Below, piece by piece: positions 5,613 through 30,081 of a stretch of 35,829 nt of DNA; the stretch's first letter is position 1, and every line of letters begins with the position of its first letter. The notes under the pieces were generated by a model. That model ran no database searches, was not told the DNA's origin, and was given only the letters and a program-made list of their open reading frames with translations. The position numbers and the translations under genes were made by a program. The stretch is from Candidatus Woesearchaeota archaeon (lineage in GTDB: Archaea; Nanobdellota; Nanobdellia; SCGC-AAA011-G17; JACPIM01): contig CAYIXS010000002.1 of the NCBI GenBank assembly GCA_964367445.1, positions 1 to 35,829 of the forward strand, in the 5' to 3' direction.

Positions 5613-6560
5613 TTATTCTAGGTATTCTTTAATTTTGATATGTTTATTGTTATTTTGAGAAATATTTGTTATCATTTCTCCTATTAAGCCTAAAGAAACA
5701 AATTGAATACCTAGCACTAGAAGTAGCACTGATAGTATAAGTAACGGCCTGTTACCTATTGGATTTCCCAATAACCAGAGATAAAATAAATCTAAACCTA
5801 TAATAAATCCTATAGCTAAGAAAATTAAACCGATTGTTCCAAAGAAATGCAATGGGGTTCTTATATAAGTACCTAGAAATTTAGCGGTTAATAAGTCAAA
5901 AAAACCAGAATGTATTTTTCTTATTTTGAATTTTGAAGAGCCGTATTTTCTTCTTGAAGTTGTTGTTGGGATTTCTGTAATTCTTGTGTAGCCTTGCCAA
6001 TATGCCAAAACCGGGATATATCTGTATAAGCCACCATAAAGATTTAGGTCTTTAGCTACATAATCTTTATATGCTTTAAATGGGCTGTTAAAGTCATTTA
6101 GCCTTATGTCTGTTATCGCTCTTGTTAGGAAATTATAAATTTTTGAGTTTAATTTTTTTATTGGTTTGTGGACATATTTATTCACTTTCCAGCCATTTAC
6201 TAAGTGATAACCTTGATTTATTTTATTTACTAATCTTGGTATTTCTTCTGGTAGATCTTGCAAATCTCCATCCATTGTTATAATAATGTTTCCAGAAGCT
6301 TTTTCAAAACCTGCTGAATATGCGGATGACTTTCCTAGGTTTTTAAAAAAGGAGATTACTTTAATATTTTTCTCTTTTTTATTTAATTCTCTTAGAACAT
6401 TTAGTGTATTGTCTGTTGAACCATCATCTACGAAAATAACCTCAAAATTCTTGTCTTGCAATGTTTTTTTTATTCTTGAATAGAGCTCCATTACATTGTT
6501 TTCTTCATTAAAAACCGGTATGACTATTGAAATGTCTTTTTTAGTTTGGGGGCTGTTCAT
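5613..6560 (-). CDS. GT2 polyprenol-phosphate glycosyltransferase (DPM1/GtrB-like) with C-terminal TM helices
   Basis: ISIVIPVFNEE...VIFVDDGSTDNT and DGDLQD (DxD) motifs, with two C-terminal TM helices. Confidence 0.9.
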   Translation of the reverse strand: MNSPQTKKDISIVIPVFNEENNVMELYSRIKKTLQDKNFEVIFVDDGSTDNTLNVLRELNKKEKNIKVISFFKNLGKSSAYSAGFEKASGNIIITMDGDLQDLPEEIPRLVNKINQGYHLVNGWKVNKYVHKPIKKLNSKIYNFLTRAITDIRLNDFNSPFKAYKDYVAKDLNLYGGLYRYIPVLAYWQGYTRITEIPTTTSRRKYGSSKFKIRKIHSGFFDLLTAKFLGTYIRTPLHFFGTIGLIFLAIGFIIGLDLFYLWLLGNPIGNRPLLILSVLLLVLGIQFVSLGLIGEMITNISQNNNKHIKIKEYLE

Positions 6561-9111: not shown

Positions 9112-9270
9112 TTCTTATTTTATATCTTTGAACCAGAAAATATATAAACAATAATCTTTGATTAAAACAGGTAATAAGTAATTAGAATTATTATGACGTA
9201 AAAGAAGACAGTTATTTTCAACTTGTAACAGTTGATAAAATGAATACAAAAATACGGAGGATTATAGAAA

Positions 9271-9606
9271 ATGACAGAAAAAGAACATAATGAAGATGAC
9301 CACGTCGTGTTCATAGGAAGTAAACCTTTTAACAGAGTATAGCTGTGTGCTATTTCTGGGAGATTGAACTACGTAACCGGTGTGGTTATGCAATTTACTA
9401 CACAAAGAGCAGATGAAGTTGTGATAAAGGGAAGGGGTAAATTCATTACAAGGTGTGTAGATGTAGCAGAAGTTGTTGGTAAGAGATTCTTAGAGGGACA
9501 AGTAGCACTTAAAGACGTAAAATTAGACAGTGAGGAGTTTGAAAACAAAGAAGGAAAGAGAATAAGAGTTTCTACTATAGAGATCAGCCTAGTACGCAAA
9601 AAATAA
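9271..9606 (+). CDS. albA: Alba DNA/RNA-binding protein, split: exon 1 9271..9331, exon 2 9365..9606 (100 aa after removal of a 33-nt insert)
   Basis: ATG 9271 is preceded by GGAGG and encodes MTEKEHNEDDHVVFIGSKPF, then hits an in-frame TAG at 9340-9342. The same frame resumes as LNYVTGVVMQF...VVIKGRGKFITRCVDVAEVV...RVSTIEISLVRKK, the Alba core. The track only calls 9364..9606 from a TTG. Confidence 0.8.
9332..9364 (+). other. putative 33-nt bulge-helix-bulge (BHB) intron in alba pre-mRNA
   Basis: Central 4-bp helix 9326-9329/9359-9362 (C-G, U-A, U-G, U-G). It is flanked by 3-nt bulges 9330-9332 and 9363-9365 on opposite strands. Intron helix 9333-9337/9354-9358 continues into 9339-9343/9349-9353 with loop UGUGU. 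Cutting after the second bulge nucleotide on each side removes 9332-9364. Confidence 0.6.
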
Positions 9607-9616
9607 TTTCTCTTTT

Positions 9617-11011
9617 TTATTTTTTTGGTTTTAAATATAATCCAAATATTAATAATAAAATTATTAGGATAAAAGCAAATACCCAATTTTGAGATTGAAT
9701 TGATTTTGTTTTTTCAGATACTAAATTGCCTGTTAAAGAAAATAAATTTTTAATTTTATCAGGTAATGATTCTTTTTTTGGTGTTGGTTTTTCTATAGGT
9801 TCGTTTTCTTTGTTACTTGCTTCTTCTGTTTCTTCTAATTCTTGTATGTTTGCTGGCTGGTTTAGTACTGGTGTTTCTTCTTGGGTTTGTGTTTCTGTTT
9901 GTGTTGGTTGTGGGTTTGTGATTCTATTATTACTATTTCCACCGCCTATATTATTTGGTGTTGCTGGGTTTGATGGTATAAAATTAACAAGCAAGCTGAA
10001 TGTTTCTGAACTTTCAGTTATATTAGAATCATCTGAGCAGTTTATAGACCATAAATAATTTGAGTTTGACAGTGTTTTAGTGAAAGTTTGAATTATGTCT
10101 TTTGATATATTTGTATTTTCTTGACTTGTTGTGTTATTTATTATTAAATAACAAAGAGGTATGTTATTTACAGAGGTTACATTATACTTAAACAAAATAT
10201 CGTTTGACGAATCCCAGGTTGAGTTATCTAACGGTGAGGTTAAGCTTATTCTTATCAATGTGTTTTCTATTGTTGTTGATGTTGAGCTCGTTGGTGTTGT
10301 AGATGTGGTTGTTGTTGGTAGTAATGTTGTTGATGTTGTAGTGGTGGTTAGAATAGTAGTGCTAGTGGTTAATGCCGTAGTTGAAGTTGTACTAGTTGTA
10401 GTACTTTGGGTAGTTGAACTTGAGCTTGTTGATGTTGTAGTTGTTGAAGAAGAACTAGTTGTTGTAGAAGTAGTTGTTATAAGTATACCAGAAATATTTA
10501 CGTTATCTATCCTGCAATATTCATTATTTGAATTTGCTGTACACTCAAATTTTATCTGGAAATCTGTATTGTTGGTTGCATTATTATTTAGGTTAAATGA
10601 TTTGATAAGATAATTATTATCATCTTCTGAATTAGATCCTGTTTGTTCTAGTAATATCCAAGATAATCCATCATAGAAGTAAGAGCTAAATTCATCATTA
10701 CTATCTAAATTTATTAGTCTTCTATAATAACTTACTGAGATGTTATCATAATCAAAAGTGCTTATTACTTTTTTTATTACACTTGCGGGTTCTGTATTTT
10801 CTCTAGGTCTTGCTTCTATATGATAAACTCCTGAATATGGGTTTCCTGAAGATATTGTCCAATTTGATGCATCTATAGCATTAGTTAATATCCATCCTGT
10901 TATGTTTCCTGATTCAAAACCATCAAAAAATACATTAACAGAAAGAACAGGATTAGAAGTTAATATGGTTAATATTATTGAAAAAACGATTAAACCTCTC
11001 TTTTTTGTCAT
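9617..11011 (-). CDS. surface protein: signal peptide, lectin-like N-domain, Thr/Ser-rich linker, Ig-like domain, C-terminal TM anchor
   Basis: Signal-like N-terminus (LIVFSIILTILTSNPVLS), a ~73-residue T/S tract, a Pro/Thr/Gln-rich stalk and a C-terminal TM (WVFAFILIILLLIFGLYL). Confidence 0.65.
   Translation of the reverse strand: MTKKRGLIVFSIILTILTSNPVLSVNVFFDGFESGNITGWILTNAIDASNWTISSGNPYSGVYHIEARPRENTEPASVIKKVISTFDYDNISVSYYRRLINLDSNDEFSSYFYDGLSWILLEQTGSNSEDDNNYLIKSFNLNNNATNNTDFQIKFECTANSNNEYCRIDNVNISGILITTTSTTTSSSSTTTTSTSSSSTTQSTTTSTTSTTALTTSTTILTTTTTSTTLLPTTTTSTTPTSSTSTTIENTLIRISLTSPLDNSTWDSSNDILFKYNVTSVNNIPLCYLIINNTTSQENTNISKDIIQTFTKTLSNSNYLWSINCSDDSNITESSETFSLLVNFIPSNPATPNNIGGGNSNNRITNPQPTQTETQTQEETPVLNQPANIQELEETEEASNKENEPIEKPTPKKESLPDKIKNLFSLTGNLVSEKTKSIQSQNWVFAFILIILLLIFGLYLKPKK
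10267..10486 (-). repeat. low-complexity Thr/Ser-coding repeat tract (ACN/AGY codon runs)
   Basis: On the plus strand it reads as degenerate GTTGTTGATGTTGTAG-type repeats. It encodes TTTSTTTSSSSTTTTSTSSSS... and also generates the spurious V-rich antisense ORF 10161..10613. Confidence 0.8.
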
Positions 11012-22170: not shown

Positions 22171-22686
22171 TTAATCTTCTTGCTCTTCAATTATTACTTT
22201 TGTTTCTGATAATATTTTTCGAGATAATTCAAGAAGCTCTTCGTATAGATCATCATCTATTGAAAGCTTTGTGCCATATTGGTATTCTTCTCTAATTCCC
22301 GTGCTTGTTGAAGTCTCTTTTTGAATTTCCAGTGTAGAAACCTTTTCTAATAGTTCTTTATCTAGCTTTATCTTCTTATTTTCAATAAGGCTTTCTATAA
22401 GAGCAAAGGTACACTCCTGATTCCCAGATTCATATCCAAATTTTGCAGCAATTGCAAGAAAGCATTGATACATAGAATAAAAAAATGCACTTGCAGACCA
22501 GTCTGAAAATCCTACCTTTGCAAACTCAATAGCTCCTTTAAGATTGTGCTCTGCTTTGCTTACATGTTCTAATGCCTTATTTTTATCTGGCTTTACTACT
22601 ACAAGGCCCCTATGCTTGCTTTTTTCCTTTAACTCTGTCTCTGCTTTTTTCAAGCACCAATCTACTTTATTTTTAGCATGGCTCAT
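22171..22686 (-). CDS. HEPN-domain protein (partner of the upstream nucleotidyltransferase)
   Basis: Helical protein with a HEPN-like core (ALEHVSKAEHNLKGAIEF...FFYSMYQCFLAIAAKFG). It overlaps the MNT gene by ATGA. I could not find an Rx4-6H motif. Confidence 0.65.
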   Translation of the reverse strand: MSHAKNKVDWCLKKAETELKEKSKHRGLVVVKPDKNKALEHVSKAEHNLKGAIEFAKVGFSDWSASAFFYSMYQCFLAIAAKFGYESGNQECTFALIESLIENKKIKLDKELLEKVSTLEIQKETSTSTGIREEYQYGTKLSIDDDLYEELLELSRKILSETKVIIEEQED

Positions 22687-23258
22687 TGCAAAACCCCCAG
22701 AATAATATCATCCCCAGAGACAAGAATTCCTTTTATTGCATTCAATATAACTTTATTTCTCTCTTTTATGTATTTCTCTAAATCTGTTTTTGTCTGATAT
22801 ACTGGATGGACCTTCTTTTCATTGAGCATGTTTATAGCTTCAACTTCTTTTTTTGTTTTCTCAAAGTTTTTCTTGCTTACGATAATTAATGCATCTATAT
22901 CTCTTGCTTCTTTTTCTTTTTTCAAAACAGAGCCAAATAAGACAACTGCATTTGCACTTTTTATTTTTTCTAGCTCTCTCACCCACATTTTTATATAAGC
23001 AGAGGACATTTCAGCCTCTTTTTTTAAAAGAAATTTAATGTACTGAGAAGAATAGTTATTTAAGTTTATTTTGTAAATGCTTGCTCTTCCAACTTTTCTT
23101 GAGGATAATATTCCTTCTTTCTCTAATCTTTTTGCTATTTTAAGGGCGCCCATAGAACTGATTCCTATCTGCCTTGCTATGCTATTGGCATTATATTCTA
23201 TTTCAGGACTTTTCAAGACACTTAAAACAAAAAGCATCTCGTTATTATTTTTTTTCAT
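22683..23258 (-). CDS. winged-HTH + minimal nucleotidyltransferase (MNT) protein
   Basis: The N-terminal wHTH (ANSIARQIGISSMGALKIAKRLEKEGIL) is followed by the MNT motif LFGSVLKKEKEARDIDALIIV. Confidence 0.75.
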   Translation of the reverse strand: MKKNNNEMLFVLSVLKSPEIEYNANSIARQIGISSMGALKIAKRLEKEGILSSRKVGRASIYKINLNNYSSQYIKFLLKKEAEMSSAYIKMWVRELEKIKSANAVVLFGSVLKKEKEARDIDALIIVSKKNFEKTKKEVEAINMLNEKKVHPVYQTKTDLEKYIKERNKVILNAIKGILVSGDDIILGVLQ

Positions 23259-23484: not shown

Positions 23485-26400
23485 TTATTTAATATTTCTC
23501 ATAACTTTGTCTATTAAACTTTCATCCCAACCAGAATCTAGTGCTGCTTTTCTTATCTCTTCTCTAGTATATCCCTTACTTAGGTTTTCTTGTATAATGT
23601 TTCTTAATCTTTCATAATTTCTTCTTTCGTTTTCAGACATCTCTTCCCAAGGTTCTTCTTTATACTTTGGTTTTCTTTTGGACATTAAATATATAATAAT
23701 GGCTGCAATTAGTAATATTAAAATTATAATTCCTATTATCAAAACAGTAATATAATTCTTTAAGATTAAATCAGTGGTTTTTATTTTTTGGGGTGTTTCT
23801 TGAACTTTTATTGGTGGTTGCTCTATTATAGGTTGAATGGGTTGTTGGGTTTTTCTCTCACATATTCCAGAATTATTACATATTTCATCACTTTGACACA
23901 CAATATCCAAACTACAGCTTCTGCAAGTTTCACCTGAATCTAGGATGTTATTACCACAGAGAGTTTCTTCCTCAATTTTTTGTGCTATTATTGAAAATAT
24001 GGAGAATCCTTTGGTTTCAGCATCATAAATATAATAACCATTTTCCTTGCCTATATATCTTGTATTCAAATCTGTCCAGAAATCATTTACTAATTTCTTT
24101 AATTTTATATCGTTCTTATTATATCCGTTACTGATTAACCATTTTTTATCTACTCTAAATTGTATTTTGCTTTCTAAAAATTCATTATTTTGTATATTAT
24201 TTAACTCAATTTCAAAAGATTTGTAATTGGTGCCTTGGCCTATATATGTTTGATCTATTTTTTTAATAGTAATTCTAATATAATTCTTATCATTGTTAAG
24301 CTTAAATGATAATCTATCGACATTACTTGTTTTATCAGTTACCTCTAAAATTTTAATTTCCCCCGCCTTTATGTTTCTTATTGTTTGTACTACCCTATTT
24401 GGACTATAACTACTACTGCCTCCTCCTGAAGATGGCCCTGGGCTTGGTGGGTTCACAACCACAACAAAGCAAGAACCACAATCTTCTTTGCAACTTTCAC
24501 AGTTTTCGTCTTCACTACAAAAGCCATCATTACAAGTGCTTGGAGTTTCAACACATAGACCGCTCTCGCCGCACGAAGATCCAAATGGACATAGGCATAT
24601 GTTGCATCTCGGTACTAACTCTTTATCAGAATTACAATAATAAGGAATGTTATCTGAGCAGGTATTAATCTTTGTTTTATCTGTGCATAAAACTTCTTCT
24701 TCACCCTCGCGACCACCATATACCCAGAAAGGATAAGTATATTCTAAATAATCCCCATTTATATTAATAACCTCATTATTTTCATTTAGCAAGGCTCCAT
24801 AAACCCTATAATTTCCATTAAAGTCAGGAATCCAATATCCTGCTTCTGCCCACTCAGTATCAAGAGCAATAATCTCCCCAGGATGGATTGTTCTTGCTAC
24901 ACTATCCACTACAACGGTTTTAAAATCTTCCCAGTTGAAATTCTCTTGATTTTCTTTTTGAACTTTAAGCAAGATCTTGCCAACGATGTCCTGATCTATC
25001 TTATTTTGTATCATAGATTTAGGAACAACATTTACATAGTAATTAATTGTTGGGCTATACTCTGGTCTTAAAACAAAATTATCAGCAAAAGGTTCAAAAA
25101 TAAAGGATTGCGCCCCAATTTTAACTGGAGTAACCTCCAAATTTGTAGTATATACTTGGCCAGTCGATAAATTACCTATTAATATCTCATGTAGTAAAGT
25201 CCTCGTTCCTCCAATTTCATTATAGACTCTTAGCCGGGCATTTACTAATGTTTCTTGACCAACATTCTCAATCATAAGATCATAACTTATTGGTTGATTC
25301 TGTACATTATTATTCCCACTCCATTCTGATTGTATTACATTTAGCCTAAAATACGGCTCTATTGGTCGGACATACATTGAGAAATATCTTTCATTATTAT
25401 CAAGGTTTTTCTCTTTGTCTGCAGAAACAACCACCTTATAATCATTAAAAAAGGGAGTATCTGGAATAACTGAAAGCATAAAATCTTTCCTACCTACTTC
25501 AACATCGTTGAGGTTTATTGATTTAAGCAATTCTAAATTTTCAGTACCATCTATCTTTTCAGTACCATCTATCCATGCAACCTTATAAAAATCTACTTTA
25601 ACATTCGTTGCTTTTTCAGATCCGGAATTTTCAACATTGCCTTCTAATATAACTTCTTCTCCAACAAAAGGTGCTATAAATGGGGCTCTAATTTCGATTG
25701 TCAATTCGGGTGAGGAGGCAAAGGCCGTATAAATATAGTTTTGTGTTGTATACTGGCTTATAGAGTCTATGACTACTTTAGAATCACTATCATATAATTG
25801 AATAGGTTCTACTTTGTAAGGACCATTTAATCCCCATTTACGTAAGCTTAATCCATCAAAAGACAAAGAAATATTATTGGTCGTTCCACCATTTAATTCA
25901 ATAAAAGAACTTGTAGAACCCAAATTAACACCAAACTGAGAGTATAAATCCCCATCCAGACTTAACATAGAATCTTTCAGCGCATCTATAGTAACTTTAA
26001 TTTCCAGAGAGTCAAAAAGACCATCGCCATCATTATCCAAGCCTTCATCAATAACAGACACGATTTTTGCTCCCCTAATAGTTACTTTTCTTTTAATCTC
26101 ATTATTAAAAACTATATCTTCCACACCAACATCATCAACTTTTATCCTTATTTCGTAGCCCCCATATCTATTTGGTGTCCAACTAAAGTTCACAATTGTT
26201 TCTTCATTAATATCAATAGCAGAAATATACCTTTGATCATATTCAACATTATTCAAAAAAAGTCTTAATCTAACTCCTTGTTCTCTCATTATGCCTTTAT
26301 TTTTGAGCTTAACACTGAAATCTATTTTTTCTTTGTCTACTACAAAAGGCAGAGTTAATTCGCTTAATTCTAAATCGTGTTCTTTATTTACTTGCTTACT

Positions 26401-29001
26401 TGTCCAGATAACAGAATTATAAAATAATTGTTTATCTTCATTATTTGCATCACGTAATTCAACAATTGGAGTAAAATAAATTGAATTGCCCTTTCCTGGA
26501 AAATTACCATATACTAGCGGATGATTTTCATCATCTATAGCTAAAATGATTGCTGGGTTTATTAAGTCTAATTTCAATTCATTTACTATAGTATATATAC
26601 CCGATGAAAATCCATCATCTAATTTATCAAATAACAAATGCGCAGGATATAGCATATTATATTTTAGCCGAAATACAAAGATTGCCCAATCCCCGACGGT
26701 ATTAGAATCTAAACCAAAGAGGGGAGCTAATTTCATATTATTTTCTACATCTTGTGATAATGTACCGCTTGTACCTATTAGTCCGTGCCCTTCTTCTGTG
26801 TACCTTTTTATAGCTTCTATTTCAGAGTCCTTATATTCATGGCGCATCCCTAAGGCACCATTTGCCCAAGCATCTGAAATTATTAAAACATCCGCATTAG
26901 TAGCAACTATTTCTTCGTAGGTTATATCTTCCTTGTTTAATGTTTTATAATCTATTTCTAATTCTGTATCTCCATATAAATACCACAATTCATTCATTTC
27001 TGGAAATATAGAAAATTCTACTTTATCTGTTCCCCAAGAGTCTACTACAACTGCTTTAATTTTTCCTTTTATGTCTAATGACTTAACAGTAATATTTATC
27101 TCGTTATTAGGTCTAATCTGGTCTATGATAGGATCAATTTTAAAGCTTATATTATAATCTCCTTCTGTGTCAGCTAAAAAAGAAAAATCAATTTTTTGAA
27201 TCTCTTTTGGTTGCAAACTATTCACAGATTTAGTATCGAAAAGTTCATCATTCATATACATATTAAGATCTATCGGAGTACTGGTTTCTTTTCCAAAATT
27301 CTTTATTTCTAAACTAATTGTCTCTAATCCATTAAGATTGATTATCTTATCATATTTAATATTTCGTAAGCCGAGATCGTTTTGTATTAGATTTGAAACT
27401 TCAGTTATAGAGTTTAGTACATCTACTAGACCCCAACCATAAGTATTATCAGGGCCAATATCCCCCTTGTCAATAGCCGTAGCTTTAAGTATTTCTTTAA
27501 TTTCATCTGGAGTTGATCCTGGCAAAATCTCTCTAATCAAGGCAACAACACCAGATACATGTGGTGTAGCCATACTAGTACCAGATATGGCGGTATGCTT
27601 ATCATCATAGCACTGATAATAATCCCATGCATCATTCCATTGTGCAGCACAAATACTAACACCCGGAGCAACTACTTCGGGTTTTATTCTTCCATCTTTT
27701 GTAGGTCCTCTTGATGAGAAAGAAGCAATTTCCCCGGTATTATCTGTTGCTCCCACTGTTATAACCTTAAAGGCAGAAGCAGGAATTCCTACTGAATTAG
27801 CACCTGGACCAGAATTTCCAGCTGCAACAACCACATTAATTCCATAATCAACAGCTAAATCAACTGCTCTTTCAATTGGAGTAGTGCCATCACTATTCAA
27901 TCTGGCACCTAAACTCATCGAAATGATGTCTATGTTATATAAATCTTTATTCTGGACTGCCCACTCAATACCCGCTATAACTTGATCAAAAGTACCAGAT
28001 CCCCAACTATTTAAAACTTTAATTCCAATCAGTTTAGAGCCAGGAGCCACGCCTATATATGGTGTTCCGCCACCAGTACCTGAAGCAGTATCAGCAACAT
28101 GGGTGCCATGACCATGATCATCATATGTATCTAATCTAAAATTAACATAATCCTTAAAGGCAATTATTTTAGGGTCATTTGTACTTGGATCATCATCTAA
28201 GTCATCTAGGCTAGGATGAGTAGGATCAATACCCGTGTCTATTATTGCTATTACGCTATTTTTTCCATTAATACCCAATCCCCTTGCCACATCTGCTTTA
28301 ATAAAAGGGACACTATCTATTAAAGATGTGTGTACTTGTAAATTTGGATATACTTCTTTTACATAACTTAGTTTTTTGAACTGGTTAGTTTCCTGTTCAG
28401 TTAATCCGGATACAACAATACCATTTAATACATCTGTAAATTCTCTGCCTAATTCAATGTTCAAACCAGCAACTTCTCTTTTAAATTGCTCGTGTTGGTT
28501 TAAAATTGCAGTTCTTTGAGAAGTAACAATGGTACCAATCTGAGTGTTTAGATTGGAGATATCATTATATAGGGTATTAATTTGGTTTAACTCTAAACTC
28601 TTTTTAGGACCTTGGTCGTTCGGTTCATCCTTAATCAGATTGATTTGTTTTAGTTTATAATTTATATCTGCCTGTAGATCGCTGGCTTGTTCTAATGCTG
28701 CTGGTTCTACAAATTCAATAATAAAACTGTCTTGTACAGGAGGAAGTGTTCGGGAAGAGCTATAGTCATAAATTGCGTTTTTGGTAGAAGGAGGATCTGT
28801 TAATTCAACTTGCTTTCCTATCTCATAATCATTCCTTAATGTTGCTAACCCAAAAATTGGTGCATCAGTAGAGGCACTAGTTTCACTAATACCAATGGTG
28901 GCTAATCCACTAATATCTTCTTTGGAAAAATTTAGATATAATATATTTACTAAAACCAGAACTAACACCAATGAAATTATAAAAACTAATTTTCGATCCA
29001 T
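23485..29001 (-). CDS. giant (1838 aa) cell-surface subtilisin-like S8 serine protease with CARDB-like repeats, Cys-rich modules, PGF-pre-PGF domain and C-terminal TM anchor
   Basis: Catalytic motifs AIIDTGID, HGHGTHVA, AAGNSGP and SGTSMATPHVSG. An N-terminal signal/TM and a propeptide-like region. Two Cys-rich modules (CTDKTKINTC...CKEDCGSC; CGNNILDSGETCRSC...). A C-terminal TM plus the tail KGYTREEIRKAALDSGWDESLIDKV. Confidence 0.9.
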   Translation of the reverse strand: MDRKLVFIISLVLVLVLVNILYLNFSKEDISGLATIGISETSASTDAPIFGLATLRNDYEIGKQVELTDPPSTKNAIYDYSSSRTLPPVQDSFIIEFVEPAALEQASDLQADINYKLKQINLIKDEPNDQGPKKSLELNQINTLYNDISNLNTQIGTIVTSQRTAILNQHEQFKREVAGLNIELGREFTDVLNGIVVSGLTEQETNQFKKLSYVKEVYPNLQVHTSLIDSVPFIKADVARGLGINGKNSVIAIIDTGIDPTHPSLDDLDDDPSTNDPKIIAFKDYVNFRLDTYDDHGHGTHVADTASGTGGGTPYIGVAPGSKLIGIKVLNSWGSGTFDQVIAGIEWAVQNKDLYNIDIISMSLGARLNSDGTTPIERAVDLAVDYGINVVVAAGNSGPGANSVGIPASAFKVITVGATDNTGEIASFSSRGPTKDGRIKPEVVAPGVSICAAQWNDAWDYYQCYDDKHTAISGTSMATPHVSGVVALIREILPGSTPDEIKEILKATAIDKGDIGPDNTYGWGLVDVLNSITEVSNLIQNDLGLRNIKYDKIINLNGLETISLEIKNFGKETSTPIDLNMYMNDELFDTKSVNSLQPKEIQKIDFSFLADTEGDYNISFKIDPIIDQIRPNNEINITVKSLDIKGKIKAVVVDSWGTDKVEFSIFPEMNELWYLYGDTELEIDYKTLNKEDITYEEIVATNADVLIISDAWANGALGMRHEYKDSEIEAIKRYTEEGHGLIGTSGTLSQDVENNMKLAPLFGLDSNTVGDWAIFVFRLKYNMLYPAHLLFDKLDDGFSSGIYTIVNELKLDLINPAIILAIDDENHPLVYGNFPGKGNSIYFTPIVELRDANNEDKQLFYNSVIWTSKQVNKEHDLELSELTLPFVVDKEKIDFSVKLKNKGIMREQGVRLRLFLNNVEYDQRYISAIDINEETIVNFSWTPNRYGGYEIRIKVDDVGVEDIVFNNEIKRKVTIRGAKIVSVIDEGLDNDGDGLFDSLEIKVTIDALKDSMLSLDGDLYSQFGVNLGSTSSFIELNGGTTNNISLSFDGLSLRKWGLNGPYKVEPIQLYDSDSKVVIDSISQYTTQNYIYTAFASSPELTIEIRAPFIAPFVGEEVILEGNVENSGSEKATNVKVDFYKVAWIDGTEKIDGTENLELLKSINLNDVEVGRKDFMLSVIPDTPFFNDYKVVVSADKEKNLDNNERYFSMYVRPIEPYFRLNVIQSEWSGNNNVQNQPISYDLMIENVGQETLVNARLRVYNEIGGTRTLLHEILIGNLSTGQVYTTNLEVTPVKIGAQSFIFEPFADNFVLRPEYSPTINYYVNVVPKSMIQNKIDQDIVGKILLKVQKENQENFNWEDFKTVVVDSVARTIHPGEIIALDTEWAEAGYWIPDFNGNYRVYGALLNENNEVININGDYLEYTYPFWVYGGREGEEEVLCTDKTKINTCSDNIPYYCNSDKELVPRCNICLCPFGSSCGESGLCVETPSTCNDGFCSEDENCESCKEDCGSCFVVVVNPPSPGPSSGGGSSSYSPNRVVQTIRNIKAGEIKILEVTDKTSNVDRLSFKLNNDKNYIRITIKKIDQTYIGQGTNYKSFEIELNNIQNNEFLESKIQFRVDKKWLISNGYNKNDIKLKKLVNDFWTDLNTRYIGKENGYYIYDAETKGFSIFSIIAQKIEEETLCGNNILDSGETCRSCSLDIVCQSDEICNNSGICERKTQQPIQPIIEQPPIKVQETPQKIKTTDLILKNYITVLIIGIIILILLIAAIIIYLMSKRKPKYKEEPWEEMSENERRNYERLRNIIQENLSKGYTREEIRKAALDSGWDESLIDKVMRNIK

Positions 29002-29075: not shown

Positions 29076-30081
29076 GATATTGTCAAATTAACGTGATATT
29101 TATATAGTAGTAATTCTTTCTTATTCTTGAGGTGATTAGTATGTTATCCTTTGATTGTCCTAAATGTTGCTCTTTGGATATTGTAAAACGAGGTAAAAGA
29201 TACAATCAATCAGGTATGAAGCAACTCTTTCGATGTAATAAATGTCATGTAACGTTTGTAGAACCAGATGGATTTGAACGAATGCGACATAAAAAAGGAG
29301 ATATTGTTCGGGCTATCCACCAGCATAACGATGGTCTTTCATTGTTTCAGGTTAAATATCATTTATTATAACATGATAATGTAGATGTTAGTAGGGAGAC
29401 CATTAGATTATGGTGTAACAAGTATGGTATTTTTTTAAAAGAAGATACATCTAGAAATAAAACCAAAACTCAAAGGAAGACAGCATTTAGATGAAAAGTA
29501 TGTGAAAGTGAATGGCAAGGATTGCTATGATTTAAACTGTATTGATCATATCACAAAGTACGTTACAGCTCATCTATTCGTCGAGAAACGTACTTTTGAG
29601 AAATGTGTAGAATTCCTAAGACAGATAAAGATTACTTGTTATGAACAGATATTAGAGAGGTACAGAAAAGAGAAGTATAAACCAGAAAAAGAGAGGAAGC
29701 TGATTACATTCGTATCGGATGGATTTGAGAATTATAGAAATGCTTTCAATAAATTATTTTATAATGTTGCCAGATTACAGTTTGGGGTTCCAATTAAATG
29801 TAAGAAATATGGGCTGGAACATAACAACAATTGGATTGAAAGATATAATGGGAAAATCAAAGACAGGATAAAAGTTATGAGAGGATTTGGCAGTTTTACG
29901 TGTGCAGGGAATTTCATGGATTTGAGACATATAATCCATAATTTTGTGAATCCCCATCAGGGACTCAAAGGAAAAACGCCAGCAGAAAAAGCAGATATTA
30001 AACTTCCTTTAGGAAACAACAAATTACTAGATTTAATTAGATATGTCAAAAGAAGACATATCACGAAAAGATGACAGTATC
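29076..30081 (+). mobile_element. IS6-family insertion sequence (1006 bp) with imperfect 26-bp terminal inverted repeats and 8-9 bp target-site duplication
   Basis: IRL 29076-29101 is GATATTGTCAAATTAACGTGATATTT. The reverse complement of IRR 30056-30081 is GATACTGTCATCTTTTCGTGATATGT, giving 20/26 identity. The flanking direct repeat CTCTAAACT lies at 29067-29075 and 30082-30090. Confidence 0.75.
29132..30074 (+). pseudogene. IS6-family DDE transposase with N-terminal zinc ribbon, disrupted by an in-frame TAA and a frameshift
   Basis: Zn ribbon CPKCCS...CNKCH. In-frame TAA at 29369-29371, after which the same frame continues HDNVDVSRETIRLWCNKYG. The frame changes at the T7A4 run 29430-29440. 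The DDE region reads LDEKYVKVNG / FVSDGFENY / NNNWIERYNGKIKDR ... NPHQGLKGKTPAE. Confidence 0.75.

Follow-up and report, generated by a model that had tools for sequence, protein, structure and literature searches.

The question raised by the alba locus of a Candidatus Woesearchaeota archaeon is how a gene that runs into a stop codon shortly after its start could still provide a complete Alba protein. The locus lies on contig CAYIXS010000002.1 of assembly GCA_964367445.1, and the window spoken of below is the whole stretch of DNA analysed, positions 1 to 35,829 of the forward strand, whose nearest relatives carry the labels Woesearchaeota, Nanoarchaeota or Nanoarchaeia, which makes it the DNA of a DPANN archaeon. 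The insert-bearing stretch (35.8 kb) has a G+C content of 29.8%. An ATG at 9271, with a Shine-Dalgarno-like GGAGG (9256-9260, + strand) located 10 nucleotides 5' of it, opens a reading frame which encodes MTEKEHNEDDHVVFIGSKPFNRV and ends at an in-frame TAG at 9340-9342. The alba frame is picked up again at TTG 9364, in the same frame as before the interruption, and continues through the TAA at 9604-9606. These coordinates had been proposed in an initial annotation made from the letters of the DNA, and every one of them agrees with the sequence, while the public annotation holds only a 72-residue Alba fragment (P0125; 9388-9606) that begins at the Met of VVMQF. Comparison with related genes makes it very probable that the 33 nucleotides at 9332-9364 are an archaeal bulge-helix-bulge (BHB) intron placed within the coding sequence of alba.

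According to this interpretation the gene, all parts of which are on the + strand, consists of exon 1 (9271-9331), encoding MTEKEHNEDDHVVFIGSKPF and the first base (A) of a Met codon, the 33-nucleotide candidate BHB intron of the type called class A below (9332-9364, ACAGAGTATAGCTGTGTGCTATTTCTGGGAGAT), and exon 2 (9365-9606), which supplies the TG of the Met codon and then NYVTGVVMQFTT...SLVRKK with the stop TAA at 9604-9606. The pre-mRNA would fold in such a way that the CUUU of exon 1 (9326-9329) is paired with the GGAG of the intron (9359-9362), creating a central helix H of four base pairs (C9326-G9362, U9327-A9361, U9328-G9360 and U9329-G9359) between two bulges of three nucleotides on opposite strands, UAA at 9330-9332 and AUU at 9363-9365. 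The motif would be closed by an intron hairpin h' of 10 base pairs (9333-9358), in which 9333-9337 pair with 9354-9358 and 9339-9343 with 9349-9353, U9338 is bulged, 9344-9348 form the loop, and the TAG of the exon 1 frame (9340-9342, read from the sequence) is enclosed. On the exon side the span 9325-9366 is closed by the lone outer exon-exon pair C9325-G9366. The tRNA-splicing endonuclease EndA is predicted to cut after the second nucleotide of each bulge, between A9331 and A9332 and between U9364 and U9365, and an RNA ligase, presumably RtcB, would join the exons. The join would form the AUG of the conserved KPFMNYV and lead to an Alba of 100 residues, while translation of unspliced RNA would end at the in-frame TAG after 23 codons and leave a 23-residue peptide. 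The helix of four pairs, the two opposed bulges, the 10-pair hairpin and the sole outer pair, all claimed earlier, are indeed present.

The position of the insert was established from uninterrupted relatives. The closest of them (P0001 in locus L001, 90% protein identity) shares the gene order U32 peptidase, S17e, alba, and its DNA is without exactly 9332-9364, the 33 nucleotides standing between TTTA and TGAA in a unique placement in which the end bases allow no sliding. The junction of 9331 with 9365 obtained from this alignment is identical with the cut sites given by the rule of cleavage after the second bulge residue, so the removal of 9332-9364, predicted initially from that rule, is returned independently by the DNA of L001. 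A closer pair of loci is formed by L025, which carries an intron of 32 nucleotides, and L046, which carries none; they are 98.9% identical over 700 nucleotides upstream and 96.2% over 394 nucleotides downstream, L046 differs by the exact absence of the intron, and here too the junction agrees with the BHB rule. Between the same two loci (L025 335-486, - strand, and L046 2540-2680) synonymous differences are clustered within about 30 nucleotides on either side of the intron site, and this cluster could be the trace of a recombination tract that inserted or removed the intron. In the protein tree interrupted and intact alba genes are intermingled, and one intron of the second large class (class B) is identical in four independent assemblies, so that this intron is not an assembly error.

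Excision of 9332-9364 joins UUU A to UG AAC and gives a product of 100 residues that is aligned with the Pfam Alba family (PF01918) over profile positions 1-65 of 66 (E 7.7e-16, 58.1 bits), whereas the unspliced form and the form initiated at TTG reach positions 12/13-65 only (13-65 for the unspliced one). The spliced product is gap-free against the solved structures 1nfh, 2z7c and 1nh9 across the KPxMNYV junction, where 1nfh has EHVVYVGNKPVMNYV and the window product DHVVFIGSKPFMNYV; the expectation that the join creates an AUG and a KP-x-MNYV motif is thus borne out in the protein comparison. The predicted junction-spanning peptide of the spliced Alba contains ...SKPFMNYVTGVV... / ...VVFIGSKPFMNYVTGVVMQFTTQR. 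An exact look-up in the protein collection returned neither the spliced nor the TTG-initiated product. The 90%-identity protein cluster of the window comprises six full-length members and six truncated members of 71-76 residues.

Further interrupted genes were collected with a pattern made of the flanking codons and a gap of variable length between them, run against GTDB species-representative genomes and JGI metagenomes. The representative genomes provided 42 stretches, one of them a falsely matched intact gene, and the metagenomes 111 stretches with two more false positives among them; in total, Woesearchaeota/Nanoarchaeota assemblies contributed 156 interrupted alba genes, whose junctions represent 106 distinct sequences. 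These 156 genes regain an Alba open reading frame only after the insert is removed, which upholds the reading of the extra nucleotides as an insert. The 106 junction sequences fall into four insertion positions located within five nucleotides. The class A position of the window, TTTA/TG, is represented by 36 sequences and the class B position, ATGAA/Y, by 65, while three sequences are interrupted at AAY/TAY and two at TTT/ATG (phase 0; L075 5629-5682 and L123 690-743), one base 5' of the window site, with all four central pairs and a hairpin of 5-6 base pairs. One archaeal alba with a class B intron (L040, JAHIVA010000097.1) was met in a bin labelled Patescibacteria, and the contig is probably mis-binned.

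Conservation of the fold can be followed in both large classes. In an alignment of 17 class A sequences 92.3% of cells are occupied by standard pairs, against 35-48% when the partner columns are displaced by one to three positions, and 8 of the 15 pairs change on both sides, 7 of the 10 pairs of hairpin h' being among them. The four central pairs are formed in 15, 17, 17 and 17 of the 17 genes and in 33, 36, 36 and 36 of the 36 distinct sequences. The second of them, which couples the third base of the Pro codon with an intron base, is U-A in 12 genes, G-C in 4 and C-G in 1, and is never unpaired. RNAalifold, with the alignment as its sole input, returns the 4-pair helix, a 3-nucleotide bulge and the hairpin, and the covariance model R1, which describes the class A intron, scores 64.6 bits at the window insert. 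In the 25 class B sequences aligned, covariation is heavy at the base of the hairpin, and almost no variation is seen in two of the four central pairs; RNAalifold finds there a 3-pair exon-exon helix that includes the third bases of the Pro and Tyr codons (for example in L005, L032 and L026; alignment A3, columns 1-3/48-50). This Pro-Tyr pair is G-C in 30, A-U in 17 and G-U in 3 of 65 sequences (Fisher p = 7e-9). Base composition was considered as a cause of the covariation and rejected, as G+C content is alike in the two groups and no such association is seen at adjacent synonymous sites; the comparison argues that the two synonymous sites in class B are constrained by RNA structure and not by composition. 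Out of 2,346 candidate junctions, a naive score based on structure alone puts the frame-restoring one first or joint first in 55 of the 105 sequences scored and among the best five in 86. The covariation of intron hairpin and central helix that had been looked for in related alba loci is therefore found, RNAalifold concurring.

It should be kept in mind how easily such a motif can arise. Loose BHB-like motifs are abundant in this AT-rich DNA (10,628 on one strand), and the motif alone in a single sequence is weak evidence. For a fixed pair of boundaries, a structure with all four central pairs and five or more adjoining hairpin pairs has a chance of 2-3 x 10^-4 at the composition of the window, and because the boundaries were set by alignment with the homologue, without recourse to structure, this figure for a single boundary pair is the relevant test.

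Several points weigh against an intron. The local fold is no more stable than that of shuffled sequence (z = -0.17), and the minimum-energy fold keeps the intron hairpin and pairs the flanks in a neighbouring register. The outer helix of the strict hBHBh' motif is reduced in class A to one C-G pair, invariant in 17 of 17 genes and followed by no further outer pairing, so the structure belongs to the relaxed HBh' form, as the initial annotation had correctly labelled it; in class B the second central pair is standard in only 34 of 65 sequences. The counts of covariation and of ranking take no account of shared ancestry, and the search pattern fixed G, K, P and YVTGV(V/I)MQ, by which the conservation of these residues is partly imposed, while the DDHxVFI stretch and the residues F, M and N were outside the pattern and owe none of their conservation to it. 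Pfam searches of 29 open reading frames found neither endA nor rtcB in the 35.8-kb window, and strict homotetrameric EndAs have been reported to be unable to cut relaxed HBh' motifs (PMC5829648). Finally, excision at the RNA level is a conclusion drawn from comparison of DNA.

The same structural irregularities lend some plausibility to removal of the insert from RNA by another nuclease, or by a small self-cleaving or ligating element of a still unknown kind, in place of EndA and RtcB: with a class A outer helix that is nearly absent and an imperfect class B central helix, canonical recognition by EndA is not assured. Such an activity is nevertheless improbable, since the geometry of an EndA substrate predicts the frame-restoring junction at all four positions, and a group I or group II intron would be much longer than these inserts of 27-38 nucleotides. 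An Rfam scan of the whole window matched no catalytic intron or any other family, and ARAGORN reported nothing. In addition, endA is found beside many of the interrupted genes, and EndAs of DPANN archaea have been linked to disrupted tRNA genes (PMC5829648). Using a verified sequence from L030 as the tblastn query, endA was located within a few kb of an interrupted alba in 28 loci; in ten mapped loci it is situated 2-6 kb away and on the same strand in all ten (for example L030 3166-3756, L021 1405-1938 and L010 427-1017). The first query had been an M. jannaschii EndA sequence, which gave ten matches, three of them checked with Pfam and one of these three against the PDB. The three neighbouring EndA genes checked all match Pfam tRNA_int_endo and its N-terminal domain, and the one compared with PDB was closest to the catalytic subunit of N. 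equitans (3iey_A, E 8.5e-37), M. jannaschii EndA being matched as well. In about 960 kb of related loci a single EndA family was seen and a second (structural) subunit was not found. Relaxed motifs are tied in the literature to EndA forms of broad specificity, and many disrupted tRNA genes are known in DPANN lineages (PMC5829648).

A further explanation is that the insert simply disables the gene, leaving a pseudogene or a truncated protein translated from TTG 9364 or from the ATG of VVMQF. It could draw on the public record, in which the 72-residue product is the only one called, and on the purine-rich GGAG just 5' of TTG 9364. The GGAG, though, stands only 1 nucleotide from the TTG, and a protein started there would be devoid of the first 11 Pfam Alba positions with the conserved VVFIG, the 72-residue product missing still more. 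Conservation of the coding parts makes the loss of function very unlikely. Exon 1, its start codon and its frame are kept with codon periodicity in 43 intron-bearing genes at approximately 75-99% protein identity: over the 12 codons 5' of the junction entropy amounts to 0.53/0.31/1.45 at codon positions 1/2/3, and exon 2 of the same genes gives a like pattern of 0.34/0.24/1.31, which indicates that ribosomes read exon 1 of the interrupted genes in its own frame. Neither exon contains stops or frameshifts in the first 44 genes collected; after removal of the insert a full-length open reading frame without internal stops is obtained in 40 of the 44, these being all that could be checked for start codon and locus end, and P-F-M-N-Y-V is regained at the junction in every case counted. 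The maintenance of the insert structure by compensatory change likewise speaks against a disabled gene.

The lengths of the inserts and the stop codons within them are informative for the two remaining explanations, both of which would leave the insert in the RNA. The inserts are 27-38 nucleotides long, with 28, 39 and 41 distinct inserts in the three residue classes modulo 3, so 80 of 108 are not multiples of three; as the lengths are spread over all residues, most genes would be frameshifted if the insert were kept, and translation through it is excluded. A stop in the exon 1 frame is present inside 105 of 106 distinct inserts, compared with 46 and 56 in the other two frames, and lies one to five codons past the end of exon 1. 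The near-universal occurrence of this stop, across classes of differing phase, suggests selection to halt the translation of unspliced RNA. Two database proteins of 111 residues (P0004 and P0054) are read-through calls over inserts of 30 and 33 nucleotides with in-frame TGA and TAG, and these inserts sit 4 nucleotides downstream of the site in the window.

In translational bypassing (hopping), known from gene 60 of phage T4, the ribosome would skip the insert with the aid of the hairpin and the stop. The arrangement of gene 60 is superficially like the one observed here, with an insert of 27-38 nucleotides, a hairpin at its start and, almost always, a stop in frame one to five codons past the end of exon 1. 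Bypassing is nevertheless highly improbable, because the Met codon of class A is split (A / UG) and the codon before AAY in unspliced RNA is UUG, GUG or CUG; with the Met codon missing, a hopping ribosome could not give KPFMNYV. The class junction sequences inspected show no matched take-off and landing codons around the inserts, and the covarying 4-pair exon-intron helix and the class B exon-exon helix would be unexpected in a bypassed message. Translation of the insert as 11 in-frame residues with TAG recoded, for which the divisibility of the window insert by three and the read-throughs P0004 and P0054 might be cited, has a negligible probability, given that these two calls needed TGA or TAG as sense codons, that the length of 80 of the 108 distinct inserts is not divisible by three, that all three stop codons are found in frame and that the insertion would break the most conserved Alba motif.

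A special arrangement is present in four metagenome contigs (L058 7410-7512, - strand; L059 5445-5546, - strand; L069 1542-1643, + strand; L137 412-498, - strand), where one alba gene bears two inserts: a class A intron, then TGAA, then, at the class B position, an insert of 31-32 nucleotides. The KPFMNYV frame is regained only when both are removed. The first is scored by R1 at 46-51 bits, and the second by the class B model R2 at 10.7 bits, which is not significant and is attributed to replacement of the upstream exon context by the end of the first intron. Read from the sequences, the second insert forms a hairpin in which L058 and L059 differ in a compensatory way; the minimum-energy fold displays it in L059 and not in L058. 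The 3' bulge of this insert is apparently 4 nucleotides, one longer than usual. A micro-exon of 4 nucleotides between two BHB introns is probable in these genes, though less secure than the principal finding. The sliding of a single intron was considered as the origin of classes A and B and rejected, as both co-occur in one gene, which makes two separate introns more likely. As a speculation, and a rather doubtful one, the alba introns may be more than neutral passengers, namely a conserved gate that ties the synthesis of Alba, the principal protein of chromatin and also an RNA binder, to tRNA-splicing capacity, or to the binding of Alba to its own pre-mRNA, with the in-frame stop as a fail-safe; they would have come from an ancestor with two adjacent introns and a 4-nucleotide micro-exon, a state that L058, L059, L069 and L137 would have kept, and repeated differential loss would have led to the present classes.

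Screens for other introns of this kind pointed back to alba. Covariance models of both intron classes, run over 353 kb of related loci, matched alba only, thus giving no sign of a dispersed repeat family. Split matches in an all-versus-all tblastn comparison of 57 loci (the window and L001-L056, about 370 kb), a screen which in-frame inserts escape, yielded besides alba one insertion in a U32 peptidase gene. This frameshifting insertion of 34 nucleotides (L032, about 6303-6333, - strand) is flanked by an 11-nucleotide direct repeat, GCGGTTATTAC, and has no hairpin; it resembles a tandem duplication or a slip in assembly and is not a BHB intron. Generic scans for a BHB motif combined with an open reading frame rescued by removal were discarded as non-specific, as they returned hundreds of matches in the AT-rich DNA and missed alba at a stricter threshold.

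Among other genes of the window, a 464-residue open reading frame convergent on alba (9617-11011, - strand) has long Ser/Thr runs, a C-terminal hydrophobic stretch and no Pfam match, and probably encodes a surface protein judging from its sequence; its homologue comes after alba in L049-L053. Further away there are a HEPN and nucleotidyltransferase gene pair (22171-23258, - strand), an S8 subtilase of 1,838 residues with CARDB repeats (23485-29001, - strand) and a fragment of a DDE (IS240-type) transposase with a GTG start (29502-30074, + strand).

Splicing of coding introns outside the spliceosome is familiar from eukaryotes, where the HAC1/XBP1 mRNA is processed by Ire1 together with tRNA ligase or RtcB. 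The similarity to alba consists in a short coding intron, ligation of the tRNA type and an unspliced form leading to a different or truncated product; the nuclease and the paired stem-loop motif differ, and HAC1/XBP1 is a stress-regulated switch. Within the archaea, the pre-mRNA of cbf5 (pseudouridine synthase) of Crenarchaeota contains a BHB intron (Watanabe et al. 2002; Yokobori et al. 2009, PMC2738675), and the cut between the second and third bulge residues, a rule applied and confirmed by cDNA for cbf5 in the latter paper, is the same rule that the initial annotation had used. According to the literature searched, cbf5 is the sole coding sequence of archaea for which splicing at a BHB motif is known (PMC7714728, PMC5829648), in agreement with the precedent cited at the outset, and the search, whose coverage was incomplete, turned up no description of an intron in alba or in the mRNA of any other DPANN gene.

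Alba resembles cbf5 in several respects: a short intron lies in the coding sequence, its borders with the exons form a relaxed BHB motif, the predicted cuts separate the second bulge residue from the third, and related species differ in a patchy manner in whether they carry the intron, a pattern interpreted as gain and loss. Alba is unlike cbf5 in being another gene of another superphylum (DPANN Woesearchaeota/Nanoarchaeota), in its four positions within five nucleotides with two introns at once in some genomes, and in the exon-1-frame stop of nearly all copies, the alternative positions, twin introns and stop being absent from the cbf5 descriptions consulted; moreover, the splicing of cbf5 has been proved with cDNA and by enzyme assays in vitro, whereas for alba the comparison is one of DNA. 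With the BHB introns of archaeal pre-tRNA and pre-rRNA, including those at non-canonical positions and of relaxed HBh' form, it shares the geometry of the motif, a similar size range and presumably processing by EndA and then a ligase. Unlike them, it is hosted by an mRNA, so that excision must keep the frame and compete with ribosomes, and its motif is partly built from codons, synonymous sites being bound by pairing. In the Haloferax volcanii HVO_1309 mRNA a BHB intron is located in the 5' untranslated region (PMC7714728); the splicing endonuclease acts on that message at a BHB motif, as is predicted for alba, but the intron there lies in the leader, whereas the alba intron interrupts the coding sequence and splits a codon.

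On the evidence of the sequences compared, alba would be the second archaeal protein-coding gene family with BHB splicing, after cbf5, and its occurrence in more than 100 lineages of a distant superphylum would mean that Crenarchaeota are not alone in using the tRNA machinery to splice mRNA. There is also a practical consequence, as Alba is mis-annotated in many DPANN genomes, either as truncations of 71-76 residues, to which the 72-residue record of this locus belongs, or as read-throughs in a wrong genetic code. The four positions, the twin introns and the presence or absence at the level of strains would form a natural test set for the gain, loss and tolerance of introns, one that bears on introns under coupled transcription and translation, and the case implies that a splicing structure can constrain synonymous codon positions.

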